A stretch of 64,000 bases of DNA, taken from the NCBI GenBank assembly GCA_049510215.1, contig JBEKZD010000026.1:1289-65288 (forward strand), written 5' to 3'. The translations under genes were made by a program, and so were the position numbers. The DNA comes from Verrucomicrobiia bacterium. Its GTDB lineage: Bacteria; Verrucomicrobiota; Verrucomicrobiia; Palsa-1439. The stretch's first letter is position 1. Every line of letters starts with the position of its first letter. The notes below the pieces were generated by a model. The model had not been told where the DNA came from. It did not search any database and was given only the letters and a program-made list of their open reading frames with translations. Below are positions 8,775 through 61,094 of this stretch, in pieces.

Positions 8775-8838
8775 GAGATTTGGCGGGTCGTGTCCCAGGG
8801 TGGCACGAGGCCGCAACCAAAACGGCCTACTCTTGTTT

Positions 8839-8912
8839 GTCATTCTGAGCGCAGCGAAGAATCTCTGTCGTTGGTGGCGCTCGACACGGCAGAGACCCTT
8901 CGACTAGCTCAG
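8839..8912. repeat. REP-like inverted repeat (GTCATTCTGAGCGCAGCGAAGAATCT class), right arm truncated
   Basis: CTGAGC..CGAAG.ATCTCTGTCGT pairs with ACGGCAGAGA.CCTTCG..GCTCAG. Confidence 0.65.
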
Positions 8913-9918: not shown

Positions 9919-10551
9919 TCAACTTCGTAAAGCGCAGTTCCCTTTGCAGCGGGCGACATATCGGCCGCGCGATTCCTTCACCTGAAAACCGATTCCCTTC
10001 TTGGTCGGCGGTTCCGGCATTGCCGGCGGGTCGATGATGTCCATGACGCGTTGGAGGATGGTGACGATGGCTGCTTCGTGCACGTCGAGCCGGTCTTTGA
10101 GTTCCTTCTCCAGCGCCGCCAGTTTGCGGGCCAGTTCCCGGTTGTCCGACAACACCGCGCGCATCTTCAGGAATGCGCGTATGACGAACACGCTCATCTG
10201 CGTGGCGCGCGGACTGTTGAGCACATTGGCCGCCATAAGCGCACCGTGCTCAGTGAAGACGTAGGGAAGATAGCGCCGACCACCGCGTCTTTGCGAAGTC
10301 GCAAATTGCGCTTTTACGTTTGAGATGCCAATTTGGCATCTCAAAAAGTCAAACTCTTCGGCGGTCAATCGGAACACGAAATCTTCGGGGAAACGTTCTT
10401 GGTTACGCTTCATCGCCCGATTCAACGCGCCGGTTTCGACGCCATAGACCGCCGCCAAGTCAGCGTCGAGCATGACCTTCTGTCCGCGAACCTCGTAAAT
10501 CAGGCGGTCAAGACGTTCCACCTGAATTGCCAGTTCTTTCCCCGTAGCCAT
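9919..10551 (-). CDS. ORF6N domain DNA-binding protein
   Basis: IYEVRGQKVMLDADLA.VYGVET, RNQERFPEDFVF, GGRRYLPYVFTEHG. The start is set at MATGKEL, outside the adjacent IS. Confidence 0.88.
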   Translation of the reverse strand: MATGKELAIQVERLDRLIYEVRGQKVMLDADLAAVYGVETGALNRAMKRNQERFPEDFVFRLTAEEFDFLRCQIGISNVKAQFATSQRRGGRRYLPYVFTEHGALMAANVLNSPRATQMSVFVIRAFLKMRAVLSDNRELARKLAALEKELKDRLDVHEAAIVTILQRVMDIIDPPAMPEPPTKKGIGFQVKESRGRYVARCKGNCALRS

Positions 10552-10748
10552 AGCCGCGCAGTATGCCAGTTCGAGTAGTTGCCGGCAAGCGCCTGAAATC
10601 GCGGGTAGTGGGCTACTTTGAAACGCGATAATTTCCTGCCTGTCTAAACCGCAATCCCGTAGGTCGCCTTTTTTAAGGCGAGGTGTCGCCAATGACGGCG
10701 CTCCTAATGCGAAAGGTGGCGACTATTATGACGCCATTGCTTTGGAAG

Positions 10749-11069
10749 TTACGGCTTGGTGCTCTGTGTCTGGTTATGCTGGCCTGCCTGAATATGATAA
10801 GAGTCTGCATTTCGATTCTCATGGAGCATTATGGCTGTCTGAACCGCAGCAAAGGCAAGAAGCGCGATTGTGACGAGAAGCAGCGCCCAAGTGAGTCTGA
10901 CAATTCGCCGCGTGGAAATCTCGCCAAGCTGCAAGGAAAGCGCCAAAATACGCAGCCACACGTTCGTAACTCTCTGCTCAAAATCTGCCCCAGCAAGTTC
11001 TTTGTCGGGTTTCTCGATTTTTTCACGAAGTGCAGCAATTTGTGCGTGAAGTTCTTTGGCGGTCTGCAT
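10749..11069 (-). CDS. IS passenger: small single-pass membrane protein
   Basis: GGAG SD before ATG 11069; hydrophobic helix LTWALLLVTIALLAFAAV. Confidence 0.55.
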   Translation of the reverse strand: MQTAKELHAQIAALREKIEKPDKELAGADFEQRVTNVWLRILALSLQLGEISTRRIVRLTWALLLVTIALLAFAAVQTAIMLHENRNADSYHIQAGQHNQTQSTKP

Positions 11070-11125
11070 AAGCCATAGCTCCTGTGGTTTGGGTTTGGTG
11101 TGTACAAATCCTGCCACGGGTGGCA

Positions 11126-11956
11126 TCATTGGTCAAGAAGCGCAACGACTTCTTCCAGACTCCAAACGTGATCGGCAACGCCCGCTTCCATTGCCGGTGT
11201 CACGCGTAGGCTTTGGTGGATTCGGCAGAAGTTGTAGTGCATCATATAAAGCGCAACTGCGTGCTTGTGATTCTCCACCTTCTTGCTGAAAGCATTAGTC
11301 AGGCGTGTGAATCGGCGATTGCCCATTCGCAACGACAAATTTTGACGCTCTACATAACTGGTGGAGACAAGCGCCGGATTTGGGTTGCCTGCGATTGTGG
11401 TTTTGCGTGTGCCGATACATGCTGGCGGACTATATTTGACTTCGGGCTGTGGCGTTTCGCTCCCGTAAAGCTTTACCAATTGCGCGAAATCAATTTCCGA
11501 ACCAAACGCATCTTCCACTGCTTGAACATAAGCGCGATGACCATCTGAGGTTAATTGAACTCGATGTTTCAACCGGCTGCTCAAATCTTGGATAAACCAG
11601 TAGGCATCGGTCGCGCCTCGATTTCCTATATGCCATGATGCAACAAGCTTAGACTGAGCATCTAACGCAATCCAAGTCCAAGTATCACCAATTCCATCAC
11701 AGCCCTGCAAATGCTCAGGAATGTTGGCCTGCTTACAATATGTAAAACTCCACACTTCATCCACCTGCAAAATTTTGCATGGCAGATTACGCATTACGCG
11801 ATCATGGTATTCAGCGCAAGCTTTGCCAACTTCTACAAGCACCCTAGAAACTGTTTTCTTGGCAAAACCCGTCATCCTGACGGTGCTGCGGAGGCTGCAT
11901 CCTTCCACTAGGCATGAGATTATTTGTGCTCGTTCCTTTACACTCAGACGGTTCAT
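11126..11956 (-). CDS. IS1-family DDE transposase
   Basis: N-terminal HTH (LVEGCSLRSTVRMTG), QVDEVWSF, LTSDG, STSYVERQNL.LRM..RRFTRLTNAFSKK, TPAMEAG. Confidence 0.9.
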   Translation of the reverse strand: MNRLSVKERAQIISCLVEGCSLRSTVRMTGFAKKTVSRVLVEVGKACAEYHDRVMRNLPCKILQVDEVWSFTYCKQANIPEHLQGCDGIGDTWTWIALDAQSKLVASWHIGNRGATDAYWFIQDLSSRLKHRVQLTSDGHRAYVQAVEDAFGSEIDFAQLVKLYGSETPQPEVKYSPPACIGTRKTTIAGNPNPALVSTSYVERQNLSLRMGNRRFTRLTNAFSKKVENHKHAVALYMMHYNFCRIHQSLRVTPAMEAGVADHVWSLEEVVALLDQ

Positions 11957-11967
11957 ATACTTTAGCC

Positions 11968-11996
11968 TTGCTTTTTTGGCCGGCCTCGGCTAAAGT
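11968..11996 (+). promoter_or_regulatory. Putative sigma70 promoter pointing away from the transposase
   Basis: TTGCTT-N17-TAAAGT, overlapping the inverted repeat ACTTTAGCC/GGCTAAAGT. Confidence 0.45.
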
Positions 11997-12101
11997 GACT
12001 TAGTATCGTAGAAGGTACGAGTCCTTTGGCCTCTGGCCGGGGATTCCTGCTCCGCAGTGTTCACGCATTGCGGAGCACACTTTCTTGTTCTTTAATCAGG
12101 G

Positions 12102-12194
12102 AAGGGGCGGCAGGAATCGAACCTGCAACCTCTCCCACGCAATGTTTGGTAACAATGCTGAATGGGAGTGCACGTTCCTTCGTGCTGCGCCCCT
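12102..12194 (-). ncRNA. tRNA-like cloverleaf with an elongated anticodon arm
   Basis: Acceptor AGGGGCG/CGCCCCT, D-arm GCAC-GAAGGAAC-GTGC, stem CTCCC/GGGAG enclosing 27 nt, T-arm GCAGG-TTCGATT-CCTGC; no encoded CCA. Confidence 0.65.
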
Positions 12195-12199
12195 GTAAC

Positions 12200-12235
12200 T
12201 TCCCCGCCTGTTTGTGCAGGCGGGGAATCCTTTTT
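12200..12235 (+). terminator. Intrinsic terminator-like hairpin
   Basis: 11-bp stem TTCCCCGCCTG/CAGGCGGGGAA followed by TCCTTTTT. Confidence 0.55.
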
Positions 12236-12241
12236 CAAACA

Positions 12242-12610
12242 TCACTTGTTCAACCTCCAAAGTCGTGCTTCTTGCACAAACGACTTTGGATTCTTTCGCA
12301 GTGTGAATGCAGTTGACGAGGCGGAGATTCCTGTCGCCCTAGAAATCTCGATCATCCTTGCGCCTTTGCCATCGGGCAAGTGCGTGAGATATTCTAAAAT
12401 GCGCGTCTTGTTCGCGCCGTGTGGCTGGCGACTTCCGGCACCGTTTCCGCCTTGTAGCTGTGCGCGTAACGTCTTGGCACTTTCTTCCAGCTTGTTGATT
12501 TCTTGGCTCAACGCATCACGGCTGCGAATCTTCTCCGAAATCTGGCGTTCAAATTCGGAGAGTATCCGCTTTGCTATTTCTGGTTCGACTTGCAGAGTTA
12601 GCGTCTTCAT
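12242..12610 (-). CDS. IS passenger: coiled-coil plus putative winged-helix protein
   Basis: N-terminal coiled coil; C-terminal ILEYL...EISRATGISASS; TTGCAA-N17-TACTGT upstream. Confidence 0.6.
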   Translation of the reverse strand: MKTLTLQVEPEIAKRILSEFERQISEKIRSRDALSQEINKLEESAKTLRAQLQGGNGAGSRQPHGANKTRILEYLTHLPDGKGARMIEISRATGISASSTAFTLRKNPKSFVQEARLWRLNK

Positions 12611-12757
12611 GGTAAGGGACAGTACACGGTCTTCCCGGACATTGCAACAAGTATTTTCAGATTTTTTACAGTGGGTAGGTAAGCCGACTTATTGGAACTG
12701 AGAACTTGTCATAACCGTTACCATTTGCCGGCGCAGATAAGCAGAAAACACCTGATT

Positions 12758-12895
12758 TTACTTGGTTTTTCTGCGTTTCTGGGATGCCTTTGGCGGCAGT
12801 TTGATGGGCTTTTCAGATAGCCTTATTACGTCGGCAACGACGCTGTGCGCAACCTGCGAGAAATCACCAGAGCGTTTTTTCTTGGGCTTAATCAT
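12758..12895 (-). CDS. IS passenger: 45-aa basic protein (below the ORF-track cutoff)
   Basis: Hand-translated as MIKPKKKRSGDFSQVAHSVVADVIRLSEKPIKLPPKASQKRRKTK*; first ORF inside the right TIR. Confidence 0.5.
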   Translation of the reverse strand: MIKPKKKRSGDFSQVAHSVVADVIRLSEKPIKLPPKASQKRRKTK

Positions 12896-12964
12896 GGCCG
12901 CATACTGCCACAGCAGGCAGCCCTTGTGAACTCAAAAATCAAAGTAGCCCACTACCAAATCGCG

Positions 12965-13035
12965 GTAGGAATACCGCTCCGACAGATCAGGATCGCGGCA
13001 GGAATGTTTACCCCGCTCTGCGGGGTCGCTCCTAC
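12965..13035. repeat. GTAG-type REP with a nested mini-hairpin
   Basis: GTAGGA...GATCGCGGCAGGAATG[..ACCCCGCTCTGCGGGGT]CGCTCCTAC, related to the REP arms in cdsA and proB. Confidence 0.65.
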
Positions 13036-13140
13036 GAAGTTCCTTTTAACCATTTTAACCTTTTCAACGGTCTAACCCTGCCGTTGGGCCTGGCGGCACA
13101 CGTTGACACCTCTGCCGACGACGACTACGATGACGCGCAG

Positions 13141-13776
13141 ATGAGCGCGTTTTGGAAGAATTTCAGGAATTCGTTTTTCGCCGGGCTGCTGGTCGTGGTT
13201 CCAGTAGCGGCCTCCATCTTGATCCTGCTCGGCTTGTTCAATTGGATCACCGATTTCATGTTGCCCGGGTCGCTGCGGACGCAGTTCCTGACGCCGTTGT
13301 ACCGGATCGGCGCTCTGATCGCGTTCGTGGTGCTCACCACGCTGGTGGGACGGGTGACGCGGTTGGTCGTCGGTCGGCGGATGGTCGCCGTCGTAGAAGA
13401 CATGATCCGGCGCGTGCCGCTGTTGAACAAGACGTATTCCTTCATGAAGGAAATCAGCCAGACACTGCTGGCCAGCAAGCGGACGATGTTTCAGCGCGTG
13501 GTGCTGGTGCAGTTCCCGCGGCCCGGCATCTATTCCATCGGTTTCGTCACCAGCGAAACCGCAGGCGAAGCGCAGGCGAAGACCAAGGAGATAGTCATCA
13601 ATGTGTTTGTGCCGACGACGCCGAATCCGACCAGTGGATTTCTGATCCTTGTGCCGCGCGAGCAACTCATCGACCTGGAAATGACCGTGGGCGAAGGAAT
13701 GAAGATGGTGATTTCCGGCGGCGCGGTCGTGCCGCCGTACACGGCCAAGACCCAGCAGCCAACAATGCCGTCGTGA
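13141..13776 (+). CDS. DUF502 membrane protein
   Basis: FFAGLLVVVP, RVVLVQFPR, VFVPTTPNPTSGF. Confidence 0.9.
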   Translation: MSAFWKNFRNSFFAGLLVVVPVAASILILLGLFNWITDFMLPGSLRTQFLTPLYRIGALIAFVVLTTLVGRVTRLVVGRRMVAVVEDMIRRVPLLNKTYSFMKEISQTLLASKRTMFQRVVLVQFPRPGIYSIGFVTSETAGEAQAKTKEIVINVFVPTTPNPTSGFLILVPREQLIDLEMTVGEGMKMVISGGAVVPPYTAKTQQPTMPS

Positions 13777-14433: not shown

Positions 14434-14472
14434 ATTTGCGTCCGCCGCCGGCCGCGCCGTTCTTCTCATGGA

Positions 14473-14536
14473 TGGTGGGACAGGCCTCCGTGCCTGTCTA
14501 GATCCGTCCGCACAGGCAGGGACGCCTGTGCCACCA
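14473..14536. repeat. Intergenic REP doublet between convergent recO and lpxA
   Basis: TGGTGGGACAGGCCTCCGTGCCTGT / ACAGGCAGGGACGCCTGTGCCACCA. Confidence 0.85.
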
Positions 14537-14561
14537 AAAACTTGCTAGACCACTTCTACTG

Positions 14562-15362
14562 CTACGTCCGCCGCGGCGGCGGACAGATGCCGTTGGGCGA
14601 GTTGCGCACGAACTCGATGAACTCGCGCGCCTCGTCCGTCGCAAACGCGCCGTCCTGCGACGCCTGTTTCAGCGCCTCCGAACAGTTCAGGCCGGAAAGG
14701 TAGAACAGCTTGAACAGCTTCTTGATCTCCGCGATCGCTGCCGGAGAGATTTTGGCGCGCTTCAACCCGACAAGGTTCACGGCGTGAACCTCGTTCCGTT
14801 CTGCTGCCAGCAGAAATGGCGGCACGTCCATCGACACGCGAGCATTGCCCGAGAACATCGCCAGCCGCCCGACGTGCGTGAACTGGTGAATCACCACGCC
14901 GCCCGAAATGAACGCCTGGTCGCCGACATGCACGTGACCCGCCAGCAACGCGCAGTTGCAGATGATGACGTTGTTGCCAATGACGCAGTTGTGCCCGACG
15001 TGCGACACGCCCATGAGATAACAATCGTTGCCGATGATCGTGGCGCTCTCAGGCTCCGTGCCGCGATGCACCGTGCAGTATTCGCGGAAGACGTTCCGGT
15101 CGCCGATTCTCAGGTAGCTGCGGCAGTTGCGGTCGAACTTCAGGTCCTGTGGCTCGTGCCCGATCACCGCACCCATGTGGATTTGGTTGTCCCGCCCGAT
15201 CTCGGTGTAGCCGGTGATGTACGCGTTGGCCCAAACTCGCGTCCCCGCGCCAATCTTCACGTGATCTTCGATGATCGCATTAGGTCCGACCTCGACGGTC
15301 GGGTCGAGTTCCGCCTTCGGACTCACCCCGAAGGCTTTCGGGGCTGTTGGATGAATGGCCAT
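14562..15362 (-). CDS. lpxA: UDP-N-acetylglucosamine O-acyltransferase
   Basis: Hexapeptide repeats, PQDLK, TVHRGT, SHVGHNC, LAGHV, IHQF, N.VGLKR. Confidence 0.9.
   Translation of the reverse strand: MAIHPTAPKAFGVSPKAELDPTVEVGPNAIIEDHVKIGAGTRVWANAYITGYTEIGRDNQIHMGAVIGHEPQDLKFDRNCRSYLRIGDRNVFREYCTVHRGTEPESATIIGNDCYLMGVSHVGHNCVIGNNVIICNCALLAGHVHVGDQAFISGGVVIHQFTHVGRLAMFSGNARVSMDVPPFLLAAERNEVHAVNLVGLKRAKISPAAIAEIKKLFKLFYLSGLNCSEALKQASQDGAFATDEAREFIEFVRNSPNGICPPPRRT
15326..15343. repeat. 18-bp mini-palindrome in the lpxA N-terminus
   Basis: CCCCGAAGGCTTTCGGGG, encoding PKAFG. Confidence 0.75.
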
Positions 15363-61019: not shown

Positions 61020-61094
61020 GCAGGCGTAGCATGGTGGTAATGCGCCAGCCTTCCAAGCTGGTGAGGAGGGTTCGATTCCCATCGCCCCGCTCCA
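61020..61094 (+). pseudogene. Degenerate tRNA-Gly (TCC)
   Basis: D-arm and anticodon arm (CCAGC-CT-TCC-AA-GCTGG) are intact; there is an A:A mismatch in the T-stem and a mismatch plus an extra base in the acceptor stem; CCA is present. Confidence 0.7.

Follow-up and report, generated by a model that had tools for sequence, protein, structure and literature searches.

The 64,000-nucleotide stretch of DNA analysed here (the window: positions 1,289 to 65,288 of contig JBEKZD010000026.1, assembly GCA_049510215.1, from a Verrucomicrobiia bacterium of the Palsa-1439 lineage) holds a complete IS1-like insertion sequence (IS), and just upstream of the transposase gene of that element lies a gene with the shape of a tRNA and an anticodon loop of 27 nucleotides (nt). 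Judged from its sequence, the gene is best regarded as a derivative, no longer able to decode, of a tRNA gene that recurs on transposons. What could such a gene do for a transposon? We tentatively favour the view, at a probability of about 0.45, that it is an IS-owned tRNA that has lost decoding and would still be processed as a tRNA in the transposase transcription unit, where it would serve as punctuation. An initial annotation, made from the window alone, called the gene a tRNA mimic; that it had evolved as a regulator was not substantiated, and the gene turned out to be a derived copy of a cargo tRNA that recurs in related ISs, a point which that annotation had missed.

Read on the minus strand from 12194 to 12102, the tRNA-like gene forms the near-canonical cloverleaf that had been claimed for it, each structural detail in the initial annotation proving right, with its four stems perfect and 21 of 21 stem pairs intact. 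The acceptor is AGGGGCG/CGCCCCT, 7 base pairs (bp); C8-A9 lead into a D arm, GCAC-GAAGGAAC-GTGC, in which G18 and G19 are present; the anticodon stem, CTCCC/GGGAG, encloses the 27 nt; the variable region, AGGTT, has 5 nt; and the T arm, GCAGG-TTCGATT-CCTGC, has a 5-bp stem and a canonical loop that fits TTCRANY. The discriminator is T and is followed by CCC, so that CCA is not encoded. With the Rfam tRNA model RF00005, the comparison that the initial annotation had named, a scan of 11800-12500 alone gave 37.3 bits against a gathering score of 29 (E 3.4e-6, model positions 1-71 of 71) and placed a 24-nt insertion in the anticodon loop; a scan of the whole window with fast filters at the gathering threshold missed the gene. 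ARAGORN calls a tRNA-??? (type undetermined) at 12100-12194. The RNA is predicted to fold far better than its shuffled counterparts (z = -5.24), none of 200 shuffles folding equally well.

In a tRNA that decodes, the anticodon loop has 7 nt, with U33 and a purine at position 37, position 8 is U, and a 3' CCA is encoded or can be added; the window gene has a 27-nt loop and C8, and encodes no CCA. The loop reads ATT-CAGC-ATT-GTTACCAAAC-ATT-GCGT, and the inner hairpin that had been noticed in it is present both in the sequence and in the minimum-energy fold. In that fold the anticodon stem is lengthened to 7 bp, UCA forms a 3-nt bulge, and the inner hairpin has eight pairs, one U.U mismatch and an ACCA cap. 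Could such a loop be restored by splicing? Taking out 20 nt after position 37 would leave AUUCAGU, with the anticodon UCA of an opal suppressor, a placement that no repeat explains; taking out the 20-nt block between the ATT repeats, which can be done at four equivalent places, would leave AUUGCGU, with U33, anticodon UGC and G37. An intron-bearing tRNA spliced to either decoder is nevertheless very improbable. The host is a bacterium, as the LpxA-type acyltransferase gene at 14562-15362 attests, and the tRNA-splicing endonuclease family PF01974 had no match in its 94%-complete genome, while a control search matched four archaea. The fold shows a single 3-nt bulge, not a bulge-helix-bulge, and among the other tRNAs of the genome listed by ARAGORN none has an insert or an expanded anticodon loop. 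Moreover, 20 nt is far too short for a group I intron. The spliced UCA suppressor, offered earlier as a weaker alternative, was rejected on the missing bulge-helix-bulge, the missing endonuclease and the absence of other expanded-loop tRNAs in the genome. As there is no known way to remove a 20-nt insert from a bacterial anticodon loop, the gene as encoded is predicted to be incapable of reading codons, in agreement with what had been said of it at the outset.

The element around the gene is sharply bounded. Perfect 18-bp inverted repeats (IRs), GGTAGTGGGCTACTTTGA, beginning GGTAGTG, and an 8-bp target duplication enclose it, and the transposase open reading frame (ORF) begins 145 nt from the tRNA-like gene, which bears out the location proposed for the gene, within an IS and a short way ahead of the transposase. 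In the minus-strand direction the order is a 45-amino-acid (aa) ORF, a 122-aa ORF, a hairpin, the tRNA-like gene, the 145-nt spacer, the transposase and a 126-aa ORF. Ends starting with GGT and a target duplication of 8-9 bp mark the IS1 family, and the passenger genes are a further likeness. The type of the transposase is less clear: Pfam places a DDE_Tnp_IS1 domain just above the cut-off (26 bits against 24.1) and at residues 199-240 only of the 276-aa protein. 'Transporter' ISs of the IS1/IS1595 kind, in the descriptions of ISfinder and TnPedia, carry cargo, with passenger genes between the ends. The window transposase differs from classical IS1 in being a single uninterrupted ORF with an N-terminal helix-turn-helix (HTH), with no InsA/InsB' -1 frameshift, and in scoring 48.8 bits with NCBIfam IS1, below the cut-off of 100; IS1595 gave 17 bits.

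The transposase belongs to a widespread family. Among the pattern matches listed, at least 523 of 600 on genome contigs, at least 553 of 600 on metagenome contigs and 42 of 50 on viral contigs were confirmed as relatives, from Verrucomicrobiota, Acidobacteriota, Planctomycetota, Proteobacteria, other phyla and phage-like contigs, the genome records being mostly from soil and peat. Ends were sought in 81 elements (80 genome loci and the window). A same-motif IR pair, with GGTAGTGGG...TTTGA conserved across the family, was found in 59, and an exact 8-bp duplication in 52 of those. Elements measure 2069-5007 bp, and since 940-2464 nt lie between the left end and the transposase in every bounded element, this is a family of cargo-carrying ISs. 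A whole-IS DNA search of 40 relatives matched only the catalytic part of the transposase, and ARAGORN found no tRNA in loci L002-L008.

How often is a tRNA part of the cargo? A census of 202 IS loci (80 genome, 80 metagenome, 42 viral-contig) found a same-strand tRNA gene upstream of the transposase in 19. Eight are genome loci (L009, L010, L012, L013, L058, L071, L072 and L080), eight are metagenome loci (L089, L091, L094, L097 with two in tandem, L103, L104, L106 and L122 with two; L104 and L106 are identical) and three are viral-contig loci (L191, L198 and L203). The tRNA lies between mapped IRs in six of the eight genome loci (L009, L010, L012, L058, L072 and L080); L013 and L071 yielded no IR pair. 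The three methods used to find these genes, namely ARAGORN, a T-arm/acceptor scan written by hand and a covariance model, are in agreement. The covariance model (R1, 167 loci, E up to 1) added nothing to the ARAGORN set except a weak 16-bit match in L104/L106, and missed the class-II tRNAs of L013 and L091. By comparison, a random 400-nt same-strand stretch is expected to hold a tRNA about 0.3% of the time, given 48 tRNA matches in the 3.05-Mb window genome (51 contigs, 94% complete). The anticodons are odd, in that they do not suit the tRNA bodies that bear them, and they recur: UGC, the commonest (L097a, L103, L104, L203), ACU on class-I bodies (L080, L097b, L122b), GUA (L013, L072, L091), UGU (L012, L089), AGU (L009, L198) and the stop-reading UUA (L094, L191), and some of the relatives, for example L012 and L013, have long variable arms.

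In a FastTree phylogeny of 160 transposases (L080 was left out, its tblastn match having failed the length or stop filter), the clade that includes the window has 14 rows and a support of 99, and seven of these rows have a tRNA. Presence of the tRNA requires at least 10 changes on the tree, against a mean of 15.5 for shuffled data, and none of 500 shuffles was as low; the trait is clustered, yet has been gained or lost many times. The initial annotation had allowed that related elements might carry only unrelated, decayed tRNA fragments. They hold intact tRNA genes, and in these the stems change in a compensated way. L009 and L089, with anticodons AGU and UGU, are identical in D arm, T arm and CCA end, and 4 of their 7 acceptor pairs are altered on both sides with pairing kept; L013 and L091, compared by eye, show compensated changes in the acceptor stem and the long variable arm. 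From these sequence comparisons the intact tRNAs of the relatives appear to be under structural selection. Positions 1-2520 of L013 contain two copies, 1674 nt apart, of a block made up of the 126-aa gene, a hairpin, tRNA(GUA) and the 5' end of the transposase; the first transposase copy ends after about 190 nt and is followed by sequence with a DPPW-type methyltransferase motif.

One would like to know whether the cargo tRNAs serve the codons of their own transposases. The ACU-bearing transposases of L080, L097 and L122 have 5, 5 and 3 AGT codons (ranks 157, 159 and 142 of 160; family mean near 1.2), the neighbours of L080 and L097 matched for third-position GC content (GC3) reach at most 4, and the codons fall at Ser/Thr/Ala-variable columns. 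The window transposase also has 5. No match between tRNA and transposase codons was found in the anticodon classes other than ACU, and the L094 transposase has no in-frame TAA. Codon tuning of this kind is irrelevant to the window copy.

What was the window gene before it acquired its loop? Because the 20-nt block is flanked by ATT repeats and UGC is the commonest anticodon in the family, we infer that the ancestor was a cargo tRNA of the UGC type that was struck by a short, quasi-palindromic insertion of 20 nt. The 5' strand of the anticodon stem, ACTCCC, is common to the window copy and L104. A second occurrence of the 20-nt hairpin was not found in the genome with up to three mismatches allowed.

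The proposed course of events then runs as follows. An IS1-like lineage keeps a tRNA gene directly 5' of its transposase; the 20-nt block enters the anticodon loop, and decoding would be lost; and the acceptor stem, the T arm and the GG-containing D arm, the parts that tRNA-processing enzymes recognise, are kept intact. What bacterial RNase P and the 3' tRNA-processing enzymes recognise in a tRNA is its acceptor/T-arm half, and decoding is not required for the cut. One transcript is proposed to span the 122-aa gene, hairpin, tRNA-like gene and transposase because the genes share a strand and no recognisable promoter or terminator separates them. Since the acceptor/T-arm half is perfect, this transcript would be expected to be cut at both ends of the tRNA-like gene, by RNase P at 12194 and by a 3' tRNA-processing activity near 12102. 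The cuts would free a stable RNA of about 93 nt and would part the transposase message, with a 145-nt leader, from the message upstream, which may in turn affect the level of transposase. The idea of a processing signal had been raised in the initial annotation, and it fits the layout, in which the genes are co-oriented and the interval between tRNA-like gene and transposase (minus strand, 12102-11956) has no promoter-like or terminator-like site.

tRNA punctuation is known from the mitochondrial model, and tRNA-mRNA co-transcripts are known in E. coli, for example from the tufB operon. The likeness is in the layout: a tRNA-shaped module stands between two same-strand cistrons with no promoter or terminator of its own, and its excision would define mRNA ends. 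The difference is that those tRNAs are functional decoders, whereas the window RNA is predicted not to decode.

The relatives put this layout in perspective. Near-consensus sigma-70 promoters (TTGACA, 16-18 nt, TATAAT; at least 9 of 12) were found in 85 of 157 loci, and in most of those 85 the promoter ends 6-7 nt before the transposase ATG, which implies that transposase mRNAs in much of the family would be leaderless. In the clade members L009, L010, L012, L013 and L089 the tRNA stands 46-54 nt before the ATG. The ATG-adjacent promoter is missing in L009, L010, L013, L089 and the window, which score 5-8 of 12, and is borderline in L012 at 9 of 12; in L089 and L010 a site that resembles a promoter lies some 70 nt upstream of the tRNA instead. 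A hairpin stands a few to about 15 nt 5' of the tRNA in the same five relatives, and the window has one in the same place (12204-12227). The window spacer, at 145 nt, is longer than those of the relatives, and its last 30 nt or so resemble, by eye, their A-rich leaders. Two hairpins, 12048-12077 and 12200-12227, score as intrinsic terminators on the plus strand, with T-rich tails, antisense to the IS genes, and might stop antisense transcription across the tRNA-like gene.

Several findings weigh against the punctuation that we propose. All 19 related IS-borne tRNAs have 7-nt anticodon loops, which suggests that the role selected in the family involves the anticodon and has been lost in the window copy, whose loop alone is expanded among the 20 IS-borne tRNAs. 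No close homologue of that loop was found among the 202 family loci, and no variant of it in four peat/wetland DNA runs. In a 221-nt search of 400 genomes of the phylum no match spanned the tRNA-like gene and no homologue with the expanded arm was found; most of what matched was short stretches of T arm in ordinary tRNAs, and a few other short matches were at chance level. C8, the A1-U72 pair and the lack of CCA fit relaxed constraint. The covariation count for 10 class-I sequences, the window copy among them (pairing in 93.3% of cells, against 39-52% in slid controls, and changes on both sides in 20 of 21 pairs), is inflated, ARAGORN having chosen the sequences for cloverleaf folding and not all being homologous, and we relied on the pairwise comparisons above. 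Finally, seven tRNA-bearing elements (L071, L080, L091, L094, L097, L103 and L122) have a promoter of their own between tRNA and ATG; the transposase thus keeps a separate promoter, and processing is therefore not the general reason for carrying a tRNA.

It is possible, and nearly as likely as punctuation, that the gene is an inert relic, a cargo tRNA knocked out by the 20-nt insertion, with no selected role and with any cleavage incidental; perhaps the knockout was even favoured, a mis-charging tRNA of the UGC type being costly to the host. The solitary expanded loop speaks for this, as do C8, A1-U72 and the missing CCA in a genome where nearly all host tRNAs encode it, the single copy of the IS in the genome and the one invariant sequence in the four DNA runs. 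Hairpin-forming insertions, moreover, arise readily by template switching. The intact state of all 21 stem pairs and the canonical T loop point the other way, but a recent event would leave the same picture; and, the transposase itself lacking a promoter consensus, the RNA probably belongs to the transposase transcript whatever its history. Mukai et al. (Nucleic Acids Res 2017, PMC5389517) report in their text that two engineered allo-tRNA variants killed E. coli, which agrees with a cost of such molecules to the host. What separates punctuation from an inert relic is solely whether the cut is of consequence to the element.

Might the RNA instead act in trans? Its rod-like anticodon arm could be a new functional surface of a tRNA-like regulatory or decoy RNA, whose partner could be the 122-aa winged-helix-like protein, a host factor that binds or cleaves tRNA, or a target RNA. 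The insertion continues the anticodon stem in a neat stack, the RNA as a whole folds much better than its shuffles, and a gene for the 122-aa protein or its homologue stands directly upstream of the tRNA in both the window and L013. We nonetheless regard a trans-acting role as unlikely: no homologue with the same arm was found in the 400 genomes of the phylum or the four DNA runs, and L086 (= L165) has the 122-aa homologue without a detectable tRNA. The antisense RNAs C4 of P1/P7 and CI of P4 are matured by RNase P, pair with targets in the same element and are not full cloverleaves; the likeness, drawn in the initial annotation, is that of a small mobile-element RNA that would be matured by RNase P. 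The analogy finds no support at the target: in the same-strand IS transcript nothing as long as 8 nt is Watson-Crick complementary to the anticodon arm, and the longest matches of shuffled arms are mostly 7-8 nt.

A bolder idea is that the tRNA-shaped gene is a working part of the transposon, with the anticodon arm as an exchangeable specificity module and the window arm as a new variant, not damage. Such a module would couple transposase expression or activity to the state of host translation or tRNA surveillance, the window arm acting, for example, as a decoy for a host factor that binds or cleaves tRNA. This would account for the recurrence of UGC, ACU, GUA, UGU, AGU and UUA in unrelated lineages; we consider it improbable.

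To return to the element that carries the tRNA-like gene, for which we prefer the punctuation reading, its parts are listed in Table 1.

Table 1. Features of the insertion sequence and of its tRNA-like gene, in window coordinates.
Feature	Coordinates	Strand	Basis or remarks
Complete IS1-like cargo insertion sequence, 2353 bp	10604..12956	minus	perfect IRs and 8-bp duplication
Target-site duplication copy, AAATCGCG, 8 bp	10596..10603		direct repeat
Target-site duplication copy, AAATCGCG, 8 bp	12957..12964		direct repeat
Left inverted repeat (transposase orientation), 18 bp	12939..12956		perfect repeat
Right inverted repeat, 18 bp	10604..10621		perfect repeat
Small basic ORF, 45 aa, adjoining left end	12758..12895	minus	family core gene, short version in window clade
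122-aa ORF, N-terminal coiled-coil-like and C-terminal winged-helix-like	12242..12610	minus	no family
Hairpin CCCCGCCUG-CACAAA-CAGGCGGGG	12204..12227	minus	ends 9 nt 5' of tRNA-like gene
tRNA-like gene	12102..12194	minus	7/4/5/5 stems, 27-nt anticodon loop, C8, U73, no CCA
Expanded 27-nt anticodon loop	12131..12157	minus	sequence and fold
Inner hairpin, loop nt 6-25, GCAUUGUU-ACCA-AACAUUGC	12152..12133	minus	sequence and fold
Spacer, 145 nt, with 13-pair hairpin at 12048-12077	11957..12101	minus	tRNA-like 3' end to transposase
Transposase, 276 aa, single ORF, HTH and DDE	11126..11956	minus	Pfam DDE_Tnp_IS1, HTH_38
126-aa ORF overlapping transposase stop (ATGA)	10749..11129	minus	no family

Next to the left IR, 53 of the 59 bounded elements have a homologue of the 45-aa ORF. 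In most versions the protein closes with a motif like GGxKGGKARAxxLSxExRxEIAxKAAxxRW, which also stands at the head of larger cargo proteins (328-361 aa) in L023, L061, L074 and L077; the window clade keeps only the N-terminal 44-50 aa. The 122-aa and 126-aa ORFs have no Pfam, NCBIfam or PHROG family. For the former, one PDB sequence was matched at E 0.56, and residues ~58-122 of an Atlas model resemble HTH domains of the IclR/MarR type at template-modelling (TM) scores of 0.43-0.46, which is a lead only. Its homologues are in L013 and in L086 (identical to L165), and of 485 pattern matches on metagenome contigs none was confirmed.

The IS is inserted in the 5' part of, or just upstream of, an ORF6N-domain gene at 9919-10692 (minus strand). 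When the IS and one copy of the duplication are removed in silico, the frame of that gene is open for 263 codons, with the junction near codon 35; the ORF6N domain begins at residue 64. Elsewhere in the genome the IS has only short matches, to the C-terminal part of the transposase, apart from REP-like repeats outside the element. Such repeats stand between genes at 8835-8912 and 14461-14540, with dozens of copies across contigs, and those two bracket a stretch of lower GC content (0.52-0.55 against about 0.60) that holds an HNH protein, an ORF6N/anti-repressor-like protein, the IS and a 465-aa ORF without family. A solitary perfect copy of the 18-bp IR lies near 57851 on contig C11 of the genome (G000). 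This copy, probably a remnant end, resembles the window IS ends for about 20 nt only and has no transposase nearby.

The same genome has a second, distant IS1-like cargo element on contig C6, at about 43.2-48.9 kilobases, with IRs of the GTTGTCCTAATTTG type and a transposase (C6:47516-48331) 41% identical to that of the window. It too has a tRNA, with the amber-reading anticodon CUA (C6:46295-46370; RF00005, 36 bits), on the strand opposite to the transposase. At 61021-61090 on the plus strand the window has a 70-nt truncated near-copy (43.7 bits) of the tRNA-Gly(UCC) gene at C1:2099-2172, without the first bases and without the CCA end, which looks like the leftover half-site of an integrated element. 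The other tRNAs of the genome are of ordinary length, and nearly all encode CCA according to ARAGORN. No tRNA-Tyr gene was found by ARAGORN in the 94%-complete assembly, probably through a gap in the assembly; IS elements elsewhere in the family carry tRNA(GUA) genes.

The whole IS occurs letter for letter in 24 peat/wetland DNA runs of 2017-2020, which may include the source of the window and are not independent; among the sequencing runs listed as containing it there was no RNA run. In four of the DNA runs one contig each is identical to the window over 10400-13200, with neither a variant nor an insertion or deletion in the tRNA-like region. These four runs also contain a joint of 10622 to 12934, with only 21-22 nt on a side, which most likely represents the ends of other family members.

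Irregular tRNAs have been met in similar surroundings. The text of Mukai et al. (PMC5389517) describes irregular tRNAs and allo-tRNAs from bacteria of forest and peat soils, with anticodons that do not fit their bodies, among them tandem and stop-reading irregular tRNAs, an association with toxin-antitoxin genes and an allo-tRNA pseudogene that overlaps a 'transposon-related protein'; its authors suggest that some irregular tRNAs are not used in translation. A 2020 review (PMC7609411) repeats this account in its text, and places the 'E-loop' between the acceptor and D stems. The tRNAs of L012, L013, L071, L072, L091, L094, L097 and L103 fit the description of irregular tRNAs. The allo-tRNAs of that text have 8/4 or 9/3 acceptor/T stems and a long V arm. 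The window RNA has 7/5 stems, its variable region is 5 nt long, and an anticodon loop of 27 nt is a feature that the text does not give. Nor, unlike here, does the text define an IS family, its ends or a target duplication. Our search of the literature on IS-borne tRNAs found only the 2017 paper and its review, no paper that describes a tRNA as cargo of an IS of the IS1/IS1595 kind, and none that defines an IS family, its ends or a fixed place of the tRNA before the transposase, with the limit that the 2017 supplementary figures may show more.

What do these findings mean for the family and its hosts? An IS is usually thought to contain hardly anything besides its transposase. In the widespread IS1-like family described here, a tRNA gene has repeatedly been kept directly before the transposase. 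The irregular soil tRNAs of 2017 thereby gain a defined vehicle with known ends, so that ideas about them become testable. Such a tRNA might cause mistranslation, tune the genes of the element itself, help it to escape defences that target tRNAs, or serve in processing the transposase message. The window copy would be a natural loss-of-decoding allele, useful mainly for testing the role of the tRNA body. If it still supports expression of the transposase, then the tRNA body, and not the anticodon, would be what is needed in cis.

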